The notes beneath the pieces were generated by a model, which was not told where the DNA came from, did no database searches, and worked only from the letters and a program-made list of their open reading frames with translations. A stretch of 64,000 nucleotides of DNA from Dehalococcoidia bacterium (GTDB taxonomy: Bacteria; Chloroflexota; Dehalococcoidia; SHYB01), in the NCBI GenBank assembly GCA_965220155.1, contig OZ244810.1, forward strand, positions 626,728 through 690,727, read 5' to 3'. The translations under genes and the position numbers were made by a program. Numbering within the stretch: the stretch's first letter is position 1; the number at the start of each line of letters is the position of its first letter. Below are positions 10,892-16,424 of this stretch, one piece after another.

Positions 10892-12634
10892 GTGGCGGTG
10901 GCATCCATCTCTTCAGAAGAGCTTGCCGGTCTTCGGCACCGTATTCGGCACTCAGCGGCTCACATCATGGCCGACGCCGTCCTGGCCGACTTCCCGGAGG
11001 CCAAGCTTACCCTTGGCCCACCCACCGAGGATGGCTTCTACTACGACATCGATCTCCCGCGCCCCGTGACGCCGGAAGACCTCGAGCGAGTCGAGGGCAA
11101 GATGCGGGAGATCATCGGCTCGAACGACGCCTTTGTCTGCTCTGCCATCGACCGGCAGCGAGCACTCCAACTCTTTGCCGACAACCCTTACAAGCTGGAG
11201 ATCATCGGGCAGATCCCCGAAGACGAGGAGATCACAACCTACAGCCACGGCGGATTCAGCGATCTGTGTGAAGGCCCTCACGTCGAACAGACTGGGGACG
11301 TCATCGCCGTGAAATTGCTCAACGTCGCCGGCGCCTACTGGCGAGGCGACGAGCGCAACCCCATGCTTCAGCGCATCTATGGCACCGCCTTCGAGTCCCA
11401 AGAAGCCCTGGACGAGCACCTGGCGATGCTTGAGGAGGCCGCCCGCCGCGACCATCGGAAGCTGGGGAGGGAGCTGGGTCTGTTCATGTTCGACCCTGTG
11501 GCGCCGGCGAGCCCGTTTTTCTACCCCAAGGGCGCCACGGTGTACAACCTGTTAATCGACTACGTACGCGAACTGTACGGGCGCTACGGATACGACGAGG
11601 TCGTGACACCCCAGATCTACTTGTCCGAACTGTGGCACCGCTCCGGCCACTACGAGAACTACAAGGAGAACATGTTCTTCGTGGACATCGAAGGGCGGGA
11701 GTTCGGCGTCAAACCGATGAACTGTCCCGGGCATCTGCTCATGTACGCCTCCACTCTGCACTCCTACCGCGATCTGCCGATAAGGTACGCCGACTTCGCC
11801 CGCCTCCATCGCCACGAGCGCTCAGGGGTCACCCATGGGCTCACCCGGGTGAGAAGCTTCGCGCAGGATGACGCGCACATCTTTTGCCGGCCCGACCAGG
11901 TGCCCGGCGAGATCGCGGCCTTCATCGAGATGCTCACAGAGTCCTACCGGGTCTTCGGCTTCGACGACATCACGATCAACCTGTCCCGCCGCCCCGAGAA
12001 ACGGGTCGGCGACGACTCCCTTTGGGACCGTGCGGAGTCCATGCTCGAGCGCGCCCTGCGCGACCGGGGTGTGTCGTACCACGACCGGCCGGGCGAAGGG
12101 GCTTTCTATGGACCCAAGATCGACTTCTTTGCGAACGACGCCCTCAAGAGGCAGTGGCAGCTCGGGACCGCACAGCTCGACTTCAACCTTCCCGAGCGTT
12201 TTGACATTGAATACGTAACCGAGGAGGGCAGGGCGGAGCGCCCGGTAATGTTCCACCGGGCGATGCTAGGCTCGATCGAACGATTCCTCGGGATACTCAT
12301 CGAACATACCGGCGGCGCGTTTCCCCTGTGGCTTGCGCCCGTGCAGGCCACTGTCATTCCCATCGCCGACCGCCATCTGGACTATGCCCTGAAGGTGCAA
12401 GCCAGGCTTGCCGCCTCGGGACTTCGGGTCGACGTCGATGACCGGGGCGAGCGGATGAACGCGAAGATCAGGGCCGCTCAGATGCAGAAGGTCCCCTACA
12501 TGCTGGTAGTCGGAGACCGCGAGGCGGCGGACCAAACGGTGGCGGTTCGGCTGCGGTCGGGCGAGAACCCGGGCGCTCAGCCGCTGGAAACGGTGGCAGA
12601 AGAGCTGGCCCGAGCCGCGTCCCAGCGGCTCTGA
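10892..12634 (+). CDS. thrS: Threonyl-tRNA synthetase (no N-terminal TGS domain in this reading frame)
   Basis: 580 aa; ...RHRIRHSAAHIMADAVLADFPEAKLTLGPPTEDGFYYDIDL...class II motifs...PYMLVVGDREAADQTVAVRLRSGE. GTG start. An in-frame stop lies immediately upstream and no TGS-like peptide is seen in the other frames. Confidence 0.9.
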   Translation: MAVASISSEELAGLRHRIRHSAAHIMADAVLADFPEAKLTLGPPTEDGFYYDIDLPRPVTPEDLERVEGKMREIIGSNDAFVCSAIDRQRALQLFADNPYKLEIIGQIPEDEEITTYSHGGFSDLCEGPHVEQTGDVIAVKLLNVAGAYWRGDERNPMLQRIYGTAFESQEALDEHLAMLEEAARRDHRKLGRELGLFMFDPVAPASPFFYPKGATVYNLLIDYVRELYGRYGYDEVVTPQIYLSELWHRSGHYENYKENMFFVDIEGREFGVKPMNCPGHLLMYASTLHSYRDLPIRYADFARLHRHERSGVTHGLTRVRSFAQDDAHIFCRPDQVPGEIAAFIEMLTESYRVFGFDDITINLSRRPEKRVGDDSLWDRAESMLERALRDRGVSYHDRPGEGAFYGPKIDFFANDALKRQWQLGTAQLDFNLPERFDIEYVTEEGRAERPVMFHRAMLGSIERFLGILIEHTGGAFPLWLAPVQATVIPIADRHLDYALKVQARLAASGLRVDVDDRGERMNAKIRAAQMQKVPYMLVVGDREAADQTVAVRLRSGENPGAQPLETVAEELARAASQRL

Positions 12635-12750
12635 GCCGACAAGCTTTCAAAACGTCTAAAGAACATCGAAATTCTTTGACTTGTTTCGAGGGGTATGCTA
12701 CGGTGGTCGGGCTCTCTCGAGCGTCGCAACGCAGCTAGGGGTGCAAGTCT

Positions 12751-13308
12751 ATAGCACGGGACTACCGGGTTAATCAGCAAATACGGGTCCGTGAAGTTCG
12801 GCTCATCGGGGCCAGCGGCGAGCAGTTGGGCATCCTGCCCATCCAGCAAGCCATGGACCTGGCCCAGGAAGCGGACCTGGACCTTGTAGAGGTCGCCCCC
12901 ACTGCTGCGCCCCCTGTGTGCAGGGTGCTTGACTACGGCAAGTTTCGTTATGAGCAGTCCAAGAAAGAGCGCGAGGGAAGAAAGAGTCAAAAGGGGCAGG
13001 AGCTCCGTGAAGTCAGGCTCCGCCCAAGGACCGACGATCACGACATCGCCGTCAAAGCGCGCCTGGTGAGGAAGTTCCTTGGAGAGGGACAGAAGGTCAA
13101 GCTCTCCGTGTTCTTCAGGGGCCGTGAGATAACTCATCCAGAGCAGGGAGTGGCGTTGCTGAGGCGCGTGGCAGAGCCCCTCCAAGAAGAAGCGAAGCTC
13201 GAGAAAGCGCCAAGTATGGAAGGCCGCTCGATGACCATGATCCTGGCACCACTGCCAGGGAGAAAGGCCACACCGGCGGCGGCGGAGCAGGCGAGTGCCA
13301 AAGCTTAA
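12751..13308 (+). CDS. infC: Translation initiation factor IF-3 with non-AUG start
   Basis: Frame reads (ATA)ARDYRVNQQIRVREVRLIGASGEQLGILPIQQAMDLAQEADLDLVEVAPTAAPPVCRVLDYGKFRYEQ..., the IF3 N and C domains. In-frame stop at about 12736, so the start must be a non-canonical codon (ATA at about 12751 or ATA at 12781), as in infC of other bacteria (AUU). Confidence 0.8.
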   Translation: MARDYRVNQQIRVREVRLIGASGEQLGILPIQQAMDLAQEADLDLVEVAPTAAPPVCRVLDYGKFRYEQSKKEREGRKSQKGQELREVRLRPRTDDHDIAVKARLVRKFLGEGQKVKLSVFFRGREITHPEQGVALLRRVAEPLQEEAKLEKAPSMEGRSMTMILAPLPGRKATPAAAEQASAKA

Positions 13309-13492
13309 GACCCATAAAGGGGCCAAGTCGCGTTTCCATCGGACTGGCACCGGCAAGCTGATGCGCACCAAGGGCGGGAAAAGCCACCTGCGCAGGAAGA
13401 AAACCCGGGCAGTCCGAAGGCTCTACGACAACAAGCTCCCATTACATAAGGCCGACGAGAAGAGAATCGAGCGGCTCCTGCCTGGGATCTAG
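13295..13492 (+). CDS. rpmI: 50S ribosomal protein L35
   Basis: GTG start; MPKLKTHKGAKSRFHRTGTGKLMRTKGGKSHLRRKK...; overlaps the infC end. Confidence 0.85.
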   Translation: MPKLKTHKGAKSRFHRTGTGKLMRTKGGKSHLRRKKTRAVRRLYDNKLPLHKADEKRIERLLPGI

Positions 13493-13522
13493 GCTGGGGT
13501 AAGCAACTACAGGGATAGGGAA

Positions 13523-13882
13523 GTGCCAAGAGTAAAAAGGGGCGTGACGGCTCACGCGCGGCACAAGAAAGTGCTCAAGCTGACCAAAGGGCAGCGAGGG
13601 ACGAAAAGCACCACCTACCGGCGCGCCCACGAGGCGATGATGAGGTCGCTCAGCTACGCGTTCCGGCATCGTCGTCAGCGGAAGCGGGACATGAGGCGCC
13701 TCTGGATTGCCCGTATGAACGCGGCTGCCAGGGCGCAAGGGCTCACGTACAGCCAGCTCGTGGCAGGCCTAAAGAGAGCGGGCGTCGAGGTCGACAGGAA
13801 GATGCTGGCAGACCTGGCGGTCAGGGACGCCGGGGCCTTTGCCGAGATCGCTAGCACCGCCAAGGCCGCAGCAGCGCCGTAG
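13523..13882 (+). CDS. rplT: 50S ribosomal protein L20
   Basis: [70 protein letters not shown]... Confidence 0.9.
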
Positions 13883-13907
13883 CCGAGGCGAATCACCGCC
13901 ATCACAA

Positions 13908-13935
13908 GGGCGCCGAGACGGCGCCCTTTTTCTTG
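13908..13935 (+). terminator. Rho-independent terminator of rplT (GGGCGCC-GAGAC-GGCGCCC then TTTTTCTT)
   Basis: Perfect 7-bp GC stem followed by a T-tract. The T-tract is the IS target site. Confidence 0.7.
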
Positions 13936-13953
13936 CAGGGCCTTTCGATTATT
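13936..13953. repeat. IS left terminal inverted repeat (18 bp)
   Basis: GCAGGGCCTTTCGATTAT; perfect match to the reverse complement of 15098..15115. Confidence 0.85.
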
Positions 13954-13977
13954 TAAAAGAAGTATTAGACTTCGTGC

Positions 13978-15095
13978 ATGATTGCGAAAGGATTGGGAAA
14001 GAGCCTGCTCAAAGCGTTGGGAAAGGTGCCTGATCCCCGGTCTGGTCATGGTCGTCGTCACCCGCTGAGCGCAATCTTGGCGCTATCGGTGTGCGCGATG
14101 ACCAGCGGCGCCCGTAGTCTCTATGCCATCGCCCAATGGGGAAGGATGCAGGACCCGGATACGCTCAAGGCATTGGGGTTCAGTAGGGACAGGACCCCTG
14201 CCGTGTCCACGTTGCACAAGGTGTTTCGCAGTATGGACGTGGATGCCTTCGAGGTGGTGTTGGGTGCATGGGTCGAATCGCAGTTGGGCACAGGGGAGGA
14301 GGCCCTAGCGATAGATGGCAAGGCGCTGAGAGGGATCCACGGGGACGACGAGGTGCCTGGAGTCCGCCTGGTGGCTGCCTACACCCATCGCCAGGGTCTG
14401 GTGGTGGGCCAAAAAGGGGGGTGCGGGCTGAGCGGCATGAGTCCGAGTTGAGCATTGCGGGTGCGCTGTTGGGGACGGTCCCGCTGACGAACAGGGTGGT
14501 CACCGCAGACGCCCTGTACTGCCAGAAGCGGTGGTGCGAGCAGGTGGTTTCTGAAGGTGGAGACTACCTGCTGATCGTCAAGGGCAACCAGAAGGGCCTC
14601 TACGAGGATATCGAGCTGTGTTTCGAGGAGCCGGTGGCGGGGGAGACCTACGCCTATGCCGAGACGGAGGACCGGCATGGAGACCGAAAGGACCGTCGCA
14701 GGCTGTGGTCGACCGACACGCTGAGGACCTATCTGGACTGGCCCGGACACCAGCAGGTGATGAAGGTAGAGCGTCGGTGCCGGGTGAACGGCAAGACCAC
14801 TCGGCAGGTCCGATACGCGATCACCAGCCTGGGGGATCGGACCCCTGATAGCCTGCTCCAACTGATTCGAGGCCATTGGGGAATCGAAAACGGTCTCCAC
14901 TATGTGCGGGACGTCACGCTGGGAGAAGATGGCTCCCAGATACGGACCGGCTCAGCGCCACAGGTGATGGCCGCTGTGAGAAACCTGGTGCTCACGATCC
15001 TCAGATTGTCCGGTGCGGTCAACATCGCAGCAGCGATCAGGAACATCGGATGGCAGCCTAATGGCCCCCTCAGACTGCTCGGACTGCTCACATGA
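13978..15095 (+). pseudogene. ISAs1-family transposase, split by a frameshift in an A5G6 homopolymer run (about 14411..14425)
   Basis: ORF1 13978..14451 (MIAKGLGKSLLKALGKVPDPRSGHGRRHPLSAILALSVCAMTSGARS..., the ISAs1 N-terminal region) and ORF2 in another frame to 15095 (...VTADALYCQKRW...GDYLLIVKGNQ...HWGIENGLHYVRDVTLGEDGSQIRTG...). The junction GQKGG / VRAERHESELSIAG lies at ggccaaaaaggggggtg. This is either a sequencing error, true inactivation, or a programmed frameshift. Confidence 0.6.
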
Positions 15096-15097
15096 GG

Positions 15098-15115
15098 ATA
15101 ATCGAAAGGCCCTGC
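15098..15115. repeat. IS right terminal inverted repeat (18 bp); 8-bp target-site duplication TTTTTCTT immediately outside both ends (13928..13935 and 15116..15123)
   Basis: ATAATCGAAAGGCCCTGC followed by TTTTTCTT. Confidence 0.85.
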
Positions 15116-15186
15116 TTTTTCTTGTCCACCGCGTTGACATCGCTCACGGACCTTCTATACGCTATCCGGAAGAGGTCCTTGACGAG

Positions 15187-15951
15187 ATGACAGGCGCTAA
15201 AGACCGTAAGGGTCCTGCCCGCGAGGGAGAGATCTCCCCGGTCGCCCAGAACTATCTCCTGGCGCTCTACATGATGCAGGATGAGAGCGACGGTCCCGTC
15301 ACGATGACCCGTCTCGCCGAGGAGTTGGCCACTTCTCCCGCTACCGAGCATCTGGGGACGTCTTTGGCCTCGATCGCGGGAATGGTCCGGCGCATGAAGA
15401 GGGCCGGCCTCATCGACATCAAGCCAAACAAAGAGATCGTCTTTACCAAGGCTGGGGAGTCCGAGGCCCAAAACGTCATGCGCAGGCATCAGCTTGCGGA
15501 ACGGCTCCTGGTCGACATCCTGGGCCTCGATCTGCCAAAGGTCCACGCCGAGGCGCACCGGCTTGAGCATGCTATTTCCCCCGAGGTCGAGACGAGGATG
15601 ATGAAGCGGCTTGGCAACCCGCAACGCTGCCCATTCGGCCATGCTATTCCGGGCAGCGGTTACCGGCCTCCCCAGTCCGCTGTCCCCCTGAGTAGGGTTA
15701 GGGCCGGGCAGGAATTAGTGGTCGAAAGAATTCCGGAGAATGATCCGAGGCTGGTCGAGTACCTGGCCGAGAACGGCTTGCTCCCTGGGGCGGTGATTAC
15801 CGTGAAGGACGTTGCCACCTATCGGGGTACGGTGACCATGAATATCGAAGGCAACGAAGTGGTCGTCGGGCTGTTGGTGGCGCCTCGGATCATCGTCCGC
15901 CCCAAGGACAGCGCGGCCGCCTCGCCGGTCTCCGCAAAGCCCGAGGCCTGA
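15187..15951 (+). CDS. DtxR/MntR-family metal-dependent transcriptional regulator with C-terminal FeoA/SH3-like domain
   Basis: ...ISPVAQNYLLALYMMQDESDGPVTMTRLAEELATSP...MVRRMKRAGLIDIKPNKEIVFTKAGESEAQNVMRRHQLAERLLVDILGLDLPKVHAEAHRLEHAISPEVE.... Start at ATG 15187, since the longer track ORF runs into the IS end. Candidate promoter TTGACA-16-TATACG at about 15127..15158, right after the IS. Confidence 0.8.
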   Translation: MTGAKDRKGPAREGEISPVAQNYLLALYMMQDESDGPVTMTRLAEELATSPATEHLGTSLASIAGMVRRMKRAGLIDIKPNKEIVFTKAGESEAQNVMRRHQLAERLLVDILGLDLPKVHAEAHRLEHAISPEVETRMMKRLGNPQRCPFGHAIPGSGYRPPQSAVPLSRVRAGQELVVERIPENDPRLVEYLAENGLLPGAVITVKDVATYRGTVTMNIEGNEVVVGLLVAPRIIVRPKDSAAASPVSAKPEA

Positions 15952-16424
15952 GGCCGCAGCGGGCCCATCACGGCCTTGCCGGCTCGCGGTCTGGATGTTT
16001 CCCCCAACGATGGGGTGTAGGAGCCCGACTTGAGGTCATCCTTGGGCCTCAATAGTCATCGTGAGCCGTCGTCGCCATCGCCAGCCTCGCTTCCAACGAC
16101 CATCAGCCAGAAGTTAGCCGACAGCATCGCCTCCTGGACCGAACTCGTGGCGCTATTCGAGATGGTCCCCTCAATTCGCGTCGACGCCGGTCCCTCTCCC
16201 TGAAGGCTCCTGGATATCGGATGTCATGAGGGCGCATCGCCGTCCGTCACTCGGTCCTCTTTCTGTTGATATGGCACACCTAACGCATAGCAGGCTGGGA
16301 AAGGCCCCTTCCCCGGGTGCTACAATCGCGGAAAGCTGGCCAGGAGAGGCCGAAGAGCTCGCTGTGAGGTGATCTCGCGGTCCTGTGGCCTACAGGGCTC
16401 CAGGAAGACGCTAGGAGACTTGAC

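Follow-up and report, generated by a model that had tools for sequence, protein, structure and literature searches.

An ISAs1-family insertion sequence in the rplT terminator of a Dehalococcoidia bacterium, with a transposase gene split at a conserved A5G6 run and probably expressed by recoding

The DNA analysed here (hereafter the window) is a stretch of 64,000 nucleotides (nt) from a Dehalococcoidia bacterium of the phylum Chloroflexota (GenBank assembly GCA_965220155.1, contig OZ244810.1, positions 626,728 to 690,727 of the forward strand), and all coordinates are counted from its first letter. Between rplT, the gene for ribosomal protein L20, and a gene for a DtxR-type metal-dependent regulator lies an insertion sequence (IS) of the ISAs1 family, the transposase gene of which is divided between two open reading frames (ORFs) at a run of five A and six G residues (A5G6). 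A first-pass annotation of the window had noticed this element and had left three readings of the frame break side by side, namely inactivation, a sequencing artefact and a programmed frameshift. From the comparison of sequences described below, we consider it likely that this is a recently transposed and probably still active IS, whose transposase is split on purpose and is made by recoding on the A5G6 run. The features of the element are as follows; L-numbers denote loci and contigs, and P-numbers denote protein homologues.

13936..15114, plus strand: ISAs1-family insertion sequence, 1179 base pairs (bp), ends CAGGG...CCCTG; empty site in the related contig L050, second copy in contig L046.
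13936..13952, plus strand: left terminal inverted repeat, 17 bp, CAGGGCCTTTCGATTAT (repeat search; conserved in 45 related copies).
13978..14451, plus strand: ORF1, 157 amino acids (aa), with DDE_Tnp_1_assoc and the beginning of the DDE domain (~40 residues, AIDGK among them; Pfam PF13808, E 9e-22 for DDE_Tnp_1_assoc).
14384..14408, plus strand: tentatively predicted nascent-RNA hairpin of 8-11 pairs, ending 2 nt before the A-run.
14410..14421, plus strand: putative recoding motif C-A5-G6, leading from ORF1 to the -1 frame (invariant in 45 of 46 copies from 9 lineages).
14412..15095, plus strand: ORF2 part in the -1 frame, ~227 aa, with the rest of the DDE_Tnp_1 domain (Pfam PF01609; dN/dS 0.13-0.25).
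15098..15114, minus strand: right terminal inverted repeat, 17 bp (repeat search and related copies).
15115..15124, plus strand: right-hand copy of CTTTTTCTTG, the 10-bp target duplication (present only once in the empty site of L050).

The boundaries of the element were derived from its repeats and from its relatives. A repeat search found the perfect inverted repeat GCAGGGCCTTTCGATTAT at 13935-13952 and 15098-15115, which has no further match in the window even when 3 mismatches are allowed (0 expected by chance), together with the direct repeat CTTTTTCTTG at 13926-13935 and 15115-15124. When 44 related copies from genome contigs were aligned with the element, the members of this IS group proved to end in CAGGG...CCCTG, and the target duplication is 10 bp long in most of the related loci that still have matching flanks. 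Because of these ends and duplications, the element is placed at 13936..15114, with a length of 1179 bp, terminal inverted repeats (IRs) of 17 bp and a direct repeat (DR) of 10 bp. The IR had earlier been given as 18 bp and the DR as 8 bp; the perfection of the former and the intactness of the latter hold, but the G/C at the boundary is ambiguous and both lengths had to be corrected.

The insertion is recent, since a close relative carries the exact empty site. This relative, contig ctg835574 of ENA ERZ25067264 (L050), encodes the same DtxR-type protein, and its flanks are 98.4% identical to those of the window. Its spacer has no ISAs1 element and runs ...GGCGCCCTTTTTCTTGTCCACCGCG..., so that the empty site GGCGCCCTTTTTCTTGTCCACC, which had been predicted from the window beforehand, is literally found there at 1466-1498. 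In addition, the Logan contigs L047 and L048 (ERR13605531 and ERR13602196) are 100% identical to the window from 11653 and 11804, respectively, up to 13964, and both end 30 nt inside the IS, as is expected of a short-read assembly at a repeat; this independent read-set check of the window copy covers the junction between IS and flank only. An exact-protein look-up of the window ORF1 gave no match. A second copy of the element is present at a different locus on another contig of ERZ25067264 (L046); it is 99% identical, is bordered by its own 10-bp DR TGGAGTGGGC, and differs from the window copy by 2 substitutions and a 9-bp tandem indel. The indel lies near the 3′ end of the transposase gene, where the 9-bp unit GACTGCTCG is repeated in tandem, twice in the window (15071-15088) and three times in L046, and the number of units alters the C-terminus of the transposase (...LLGLLT in the window versus ...LLGLLGLLT in L046).

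In L050, the same spacer between rplT and the regulator gene contains a different IS of ~1.45 kb (L050 1486-2939, corresponding to window ~15126-15133). It encodes a 454-aa transposase on the minus strand that scores 407 bits with the ISNCY family of NCBIfam, and its ends read TGT...ACA. This ISNCY-type IS lies 9 bp further right than the ISAs1 element and abuts the TTGACA box in front of the regulator gene, with CCACCGCG apparently duplicated. The 35-bp spacer has thus been hit twice independently, by an ISAs1 element in the window and by an ISNCY element in L050.

In the frame of ORF1, the motif is read as CAA AAA GGG GGG, and ORF1 stops 30 nt after it. The transposase is indeed split at this run, as had been noted, while the run itself occupies 14411..14421 and does not reach 14425. 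Joining ORF1 and ORF2 at A5G6 gives a protein of 372 aa, which reads ...VVGQKGG before the junction and VRAERHESEL... after it. Two domains are recognised in the fused protein, PF13808 at residues 12-99 and PF01609 (DDE_Tnp_1) at residues 106-339, and the latter crosses the frame break at about residue 147. Because DDE_Tnp_1 spans the break, neither ORF alone holds the whole catalytic domain, and fusion is needed to complete it.

To our knowledge, the described members of the ISAs1 family encode one uninterrupted transposase ORF (ISfinder family table). The window element and the Dehalococcoidia-associated clade to which it belongs differ from them in that a conserved A/G run divides the gene, and the 1179 bp of the window element fall just below the usual 1200-1500 bp. 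The family assignment made in the first-pass annotation is borne out. The fused protein reaches 230.6 bits on the NCBIfam profile NF033564 (cutoff 70, profile positions 1-314), and the match to the transposase hidden Markov model, the DDE_Tnp_1_assoc plus DDE_Tnp_1 architecture and the ~1.2 kb size class are shared with the family (ISAs1, IS1358 and H-repeat; examples are ISArsp11 and Frankia Francci3_2330/2941). Terminal IRs of 14-22 bp beginning with CAGGG are characteristic of ISAs1 elements (PMC11946415), and the 17-bp IR CAGGGCCTTTCGATTAT is perfect and begins in this way. The target duplication of the family measures 8-10 bp, typically 10; CAGGG ends with a 10-bp DR are its hallmarks (PMC11946415; ISArsp11 in PMC6305408), and CTTTTTCTTG is found on both sides of the window element.

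The conservation of the frame break was examined in 46 copies, the window included, which represent 9 IS lineages with 69-85% nt identity. A genome scan had yielded 44 loci in Dehalococcoidia metagenome-assembled genomes (MAGs) with 62-77% aa identity, and in all 44 the length of the tblastn match equals 3n-1. DNA alignment showed that the 12-mer CAAAAAGGGGGG and the -1 break are present in 45 of the 46 copies, the remaining one (L031) having A5G5A; by contrast, the ~12 nt that follow CAAAAAGGGGGG vary between lineages. The frame of ORF1 ends 12-39 nt past the motif in every copy, and both ORFs are intact in 44/46, with other defects in the remaining two. Copies within one genome (2-14 each) are 98.8-100% identical, whereas 15-31% nt divergence separates the lineages. 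Between lineages, the ratio of nonsynonymous to synonymous substitution rates (dN/dS) is 0.12-0.31 for both ORF parts at a dS of 0.5-1.3; that is to say, purifying selection acts on both parts.

The motif is also conserved beyond what its amino acids demand. Only 29% of the degenerate codons whose amino acid is invariant are identical across all lineages, and CAA AAA GGG GGG is among them, even though its codons are minority choices in these genes (CAA 28%, AAA 18%, GGG 23%). Only one invariant stretch of the element is longer than C-A5-G6. It encodes AIDGKAL, which we take to hold the first catalytic Asp of IS4/ISAs1-type transposases. No in-frame master copy was found among the 44 genome loci, though the same search patterns would have detected one. 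In a protein search, 55 of the best 120 homologues were 206-260 aa long and covered only the C-terminal 55-61% of the query, and these ORF2-only homologues originate from ENA, JGI, Logan and NCBI sources. A scan of metagenome contigs with the fused protein returned a single in-frame relative, L045, which at 43% identity is too distant to be informative. Taken together, the conserved motif, the selection, the split domain and the lack of an in-frame copy among these loci form the signature of programmed recoding and not of decay, and the programmed frameshift is therefore favoured among the three readings first offered.

The other readings of the break can be weighed against these data. If the gene were a plain pseudogene, the G-run would be a hot spot, the transposase dead, and the copies either decaying relics or passengers moved in trans by intact elements. 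Run length does vary among in-frame and out-of-frame lineages (A4G5, A4G6, A5G6 and A4G8), and the defects in 2/46 copies point the same way; but decay is unlikely when lineages separated by a dS of 0.5-1.3 share an identical break and keep both halves open under purifying selection, when genomes hold 2-14 near-identical copies with no in-frame copy among 44 loci, and when the motif is invariant against codon bias. Homopolymers are the main error type of long reads, and most of the related loci are long-read MAG chromosomes, from which it might be argued that a true G7 (or A6) has been under-called. Such an artefact is hardly credible. The A5G6 motif and the break also occur in the short-read JGI contigs L051 and L052, so that the break is not a long-read homopolymer error; a class of relatives needing a +1 shift is found in short-read contigs assembled with MEGAHIT and SPAdes (L059, L060), the 55 ORF2-only homologues come from four kinds of source, and a uniform error in 45/46 copies with none called in frame is implausible.

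Two further explanations accept the break as real and give it another role. In phase variation at the DNA level, rare G6 to G7 slippage during replication would for a time give one copy an in-frame transposase gene, the product of which would mobilise the G6 copies. Homopolymer tracts are classic contingency loci, and in-frame run variants do exist in nature (L062 with A4G8; P0006). However, no copy of the -1 class is in frame (45 of the 46 have A5G6, L031 has A5G5A), and an in-frame source with the usual cis preference should yield new copies that are in frame. Moreover, phase-variable tracts are typically longer than G6, and since L062 is disrupted and lies on a long-read contig with 8x coverage, its G8 may have arisen as an error of assembly. 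Phase variation is rated as unlikely, a little less probable than decay. L062 itself (ENA ERZ25067264 ctg835842, 8x) is a C-A4-G8 copy cut by an IS3-type element with HTH_Tnp_1 and rve genes, which represents either a naturally occurring variant with a restored frame or a low-coverage homopolymer error. It might also be supposed that two separate polypeptides cooperate, the A/G run serving as a Shine-Dalgarno (SD)-like site for an ORF2 that starts just downstream. Candidate starts are at hand (GTG 14421 in the window, ATG in L001-type elements), in several lineages an ATG or GTG in the frame of ORF2 follows the run within 0-2 nt, gene callers begin ORF2 there (P0008, P0010, P0021), and G-rich runs can act as SD sequences, as was reported for G_GG.G constructs (PMC4066793). 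Against this, the DDE domain would be cut mid-way, with its first ~40 residues including AIDGK left in ORF1; in the lineage of L032 (11 near-identical copies), the first start codon comes only 14 codons past the run; the spacing from run to GTG is 0 nt in the window; and in-frame relatives encode one continuous protein. Independent translation of ORF2 is thus very improbable.

For recoding, the in-frame relatives indicate what the junction should look like. P0001 reads QKGGRSAKRKSEL, its DNA having C-A4-G6 and one nt fewer downstream (L056, L057); P0007 reads QKGV with the run A4G5 (L058), P0003 reads QKGGDCSE with A4G8 (L062), and P0006 and P0009 read QKGG. Because the in-frame relatives read QKGG or QKGV, the functional junction is Q-K-G-(G)-V, and in the window such a junction therefore calls for one extra G in the mRNA or for a tRNA-Gly that slips by -1 from the second GGG. 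A slip of tRNA-Lys on A_AAA was also considered; it would give QKRGV and is less likely, since every in-frame relative has QKGG or QKGV.

Sister lineages with 58-66% identity break at the same G6 run and require a +1 shift. Their motif is C-A4-G6 in L059 and L060, and CAAGC-G6 in L053 and L061. A shift direction that is not conserved at one site is typical of transcriptional realignment (Antonov et al., PMC3711429), and the -1 and +1 classes differ in just this way at the same run. Moreover, A5G6 is, at 11 nt, long enough to span the RNA-DNA hybrid, and by the rule given in PMC5009743 a one-step backward realignment on it would leave a single rG:dT wobble and add one G, which is the correction required. 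Precedents for slippage on heteropolymeric runs are the T5C5 run of an IS630 element in Roseiflexus and the AnGn stuttering of paramyxoviruses (PMC5009743).

The course of expression may then be pictured as follows. Standard decoding would yield the 157-aa ORF1 product with its N-terminal domain of DNA-binding type, which may serve as an OrfA-like regulator. In a minority of expression events, the frame would be shifted on C-A5-G6 to give the 372-aa fused transposase, the sole product with the whole DDE domain. The shift would most likely take place on the run itself, where RNA polymerase may move back by one position and produce an A5G7 mRNA, or the P-site tRNA-Gly may slip by -1 on GGG_GGG; either event would give the junction QKGGV. 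Polymerase slippage is rated slightly ahead. P-site slippage of tRNA-Gly on the G-run would fit both shift classes.

Several observations weigh against recoding on the run, or against one of its two forms. The related copies come mostly from long-read MAGs of one project, and they represent about 9 lineages of a single bacterial class. G6 is short for polymerase slippage, the bacterial cases of which usually involve at least 9 A or T or a stimulatory hairpin. In the phase of ORF1, the run gives A_AAA_GGG and A_GGG_GGG instead of a canonical X_XXY_YYZ, only the tetramers A_AAA and G_GGG being in phase. A heptamer that works efficiently in E. coli, A_AAG_GGG (PMC4066793), does not fall in this phase. 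CAAGC-G6 in L053 and L061 has no A-run, and wobble-tolerant polymerase slippage cannot explain it; the repeated changes of run length listed above are, moreover, what a mutational hot spot would produce. The slippage site of Roseiflexus needs an adjacent nascent hairpin, and the hairpin predicted at 14384-14408 in the window is unsupported: it has no meaningful covariation (1/17 predicted pairs, with one compensatory change) and its z-score is not significant. As a stimulator, this hairpin is not relied on, since in-frame relatives show similar pairing potential. Likewise, no conserved stimulatory structure was found downstream of the run (consensus fold -3.8 kcal/mol, no covariation; window z = +1.4), and no SD-like element upstream of it is conserved in the alignment.

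Among known systems, recoding on this run is closest in layout to the OrfA/OrfAB arrangement of IS1, the IS3 family (IS911, IS3, IS150) and IS5/IS427. In both cases the ORFs overlap and the upstream one encodes a DNA-binding product, the upstream frame stops soon after the shift site, a complete DDE domain exists only in the fusion, and the motif is conserved against synonymous drift. The differences from these -1 frameshifting elements lie in the signal: the window motif is neither A_AAA_AAG nor A_AAA_AAA nor any in-phase X_XXY_YYZ heptamer, neither a downstream hairpin or pseudoknot nor a clear upstream SD was detected in the window group, and sister lineages need +1 at the same run. The site also resembles the T5C5 run of the Roseiflexus IS630 element and the AnGn run of the paramyxovirus P gene, each a two-base run of about the length of the RNA-DNA hybrid. 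With Roseiflexus it shares the host phylum Chloroflexota. Further points of resemblance are that related elements do not all shift in one direction, and that the +1 nt required in the window is, on an AnGn run, the change that costs only a G:T(U) wobble. Unlike the Roseiflexus element, in which one C is deleted and a 5′-adjacent nascent hairpin is strictly needed (PMC5009743), the window requires an insertion. In the paramyxovirus case, the enzyme is an RNA-dependent polymerase.

The genes and signals on both sides of the element are as follows.

13523..13882, plus strand: rplT (ribosomal protein L20), last gene of infC-rpmI-rplT (Pfam PF00453, E 7.8e-43).
13906..13935, plus strand: rplT intrinsic terminator, hairpin 13906-13928 plus T-tract (terminator scan, fold and direct repeat).
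15134..15139, plus strand: TTGACA, -35-like hexamer of the candidate promoter of the regulator gene (sequence; target statistics).
15187..15951, plus strand: DtxR/MntR-type metal-dependent regulator with a C-terminal FeoA domain (Pfam PF02742, PF04023, PF01325; same gene in L050).

The IS parts rplT from the downstream regulator gene and sits in the T-tract of the rplT terminator, both of which had been stated in the first-pass annotation. A protein identical to the rplT product of the window is also encoded in L047-L049. The terminator scan gives the terminator a stem of 10 pairs (8 GC) with a loop of 3, followed by the T-tract, and its fold has -22.6 kcal/mol with z = -3.6. The insertion point lies 7 nt after the hairpin, and the duplication CTTTTTCTTG is that T-tract, the left copy at 13926-13935 completing it. 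Since hairpin and T-tract are restored on the left by the duplication, the terminator is intact and loss of termination is not expected. In the operon itself, the start of rpmI (GTG 13295) overlaps the end of infC (stop 13306-13308) by 14 nt, which is ordinary, and the longest ORF for infC starts at TTG 12826.

On the right side, TTGACA lies 19 nt from the end of the IS; the first-pass annotation had placed the start of a candidate promoter 12 bp after the IS. A strict sigma-70 scan called no full promoter at 15134, where the -10 region is weak (TATACG or TACGCT), and the promoter is thus a candidate. The candidate core promoter of the metal regulator is left intact by the insertion, the -35-like box standing outside the element. 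The terminator scan found no terminator-like site between the stop of the transposase and the regulator gene, and transcriptional read-through from the IS into the regulator gene is therefore possible; in effect, the IS places a co-oriented transposase gene without a terminator upstream of a metal regulator. An Rfam scan of 12400-16400 returned one chance match (23 bits against a gathering score of 123).

The position of the window copy, exactly in the T-tract and 7 nt past the hairpin, raises the idea of an IS that targets terminators by recognising their hairpins or T-tracts, like some group II introns and IS that target repetitive extragenic palindromic (REP) sequences. This idea is highly improbable for the group: the other exact target duplications that were recovered are GC-rich or mixed, none being T-rich or placed after a T-tract, and the only significant feature shared by the flanks is a TTG 18-20 nt outside each end. 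A T-tract or terminator was accordingly rejected as the target preference of this IS group. The TTG (peak at 19 nt) occurs in 41 of 90 non-redundant flanks as compared with ~3.8 in control windows (binomial p = 4e-32), and in the flanks of L001-L046 and the window the preferred site is symmetric, CAA-N8-[10-bp duplication]-N8-TTG. We know of no described target consensus for ISAs1. Both flanks of L046 conform to this site. In the window only the right flank does so, with an offset of one nt, and its TTG (15134-15136) belongs to the TTGACA box. A test of gene avoidance, by long ORFs over rebuilt empty sites, proved unreliable, for spurious ORFs in GC-rich DNA span even the intergenic site of the window.

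Further observations concern the surroundings of the copies. A full TTGACA is found 18-19 nt past the right end in 10/46 loci (L002, L004, L005, L006, L012, L013, L014, L017, L036 and the window at 15134-15139) and past the left end in 1/46. This bias suggests that the element inserts in one orientation just ahead of promoters, or that insertions of this kind are favoured by selection. In L027, L008, L010, L034 and L035, the end of another IS of the same group lies only 9-12 bp from the end of the copy; the arrangement in L027 is IS-GGAGCCGGAA-IS-GGAGCCGGAA. Such closely spaced ends could be tandem dimers or could reflect a preference for insertion beside existing ends, and they may hold a clue to the transposition chemistry of ISAs1. 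In the MAG CBDANP01 (L033/L037 and L034/L036/L039), target duplications are swapped, the left flank of one copy being the right flank of another, which indicates that homologous recombination between IS copies has inverted or otherwise rearranged parts of this genome.

A full-text literature search, which included the recoding surveys PMC4066793, PMC3711429 and PMC5009743, found no report of programmed frameshifting in ISAs1. Since frameshift clusters do appear in these surveys under DDE_Tnp_1, a broad Pfam family, an unnamed overlap with ISAs1 is possible. Programmed frameshifting in IS is a classic phenomenon, and there is nothing unusual about the insertion as such; the novelty lies in the family, in the motif and in the use of one G-run in both directions. 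A more specific proposal can be put forward as a tentative one, which we hold to be possible and on balance doubtful: in this Dehalococcoidia clade of ISAs1, RNA polymerase may stutter on AnG6 in the manner of paramyxoviruses (A5G6 with +1 G, A4G6 with +2 G), and this would be coupled to the 32-bp symmetric preference CAA-N8-[10]-N8-TTG. If true, AnG6 stuttering would be the first bacterial editing site of the AnGn type with G insertion and, at the same time, the first programmed recoding in ISAs1. The short heteropolymeric A5G6, with no detectable stimulator and with both shift directions, offers a compact test case for polymerase slippage versus slippage of tRNA-Gly. For annotation, dozens of copies are now called as two genes or as pseudogenes, and recognition of the recoding site would correct this. 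A recognised recoding site would also identify these elements as actively driving the rearrangement of Dehalococcoidia genomes.

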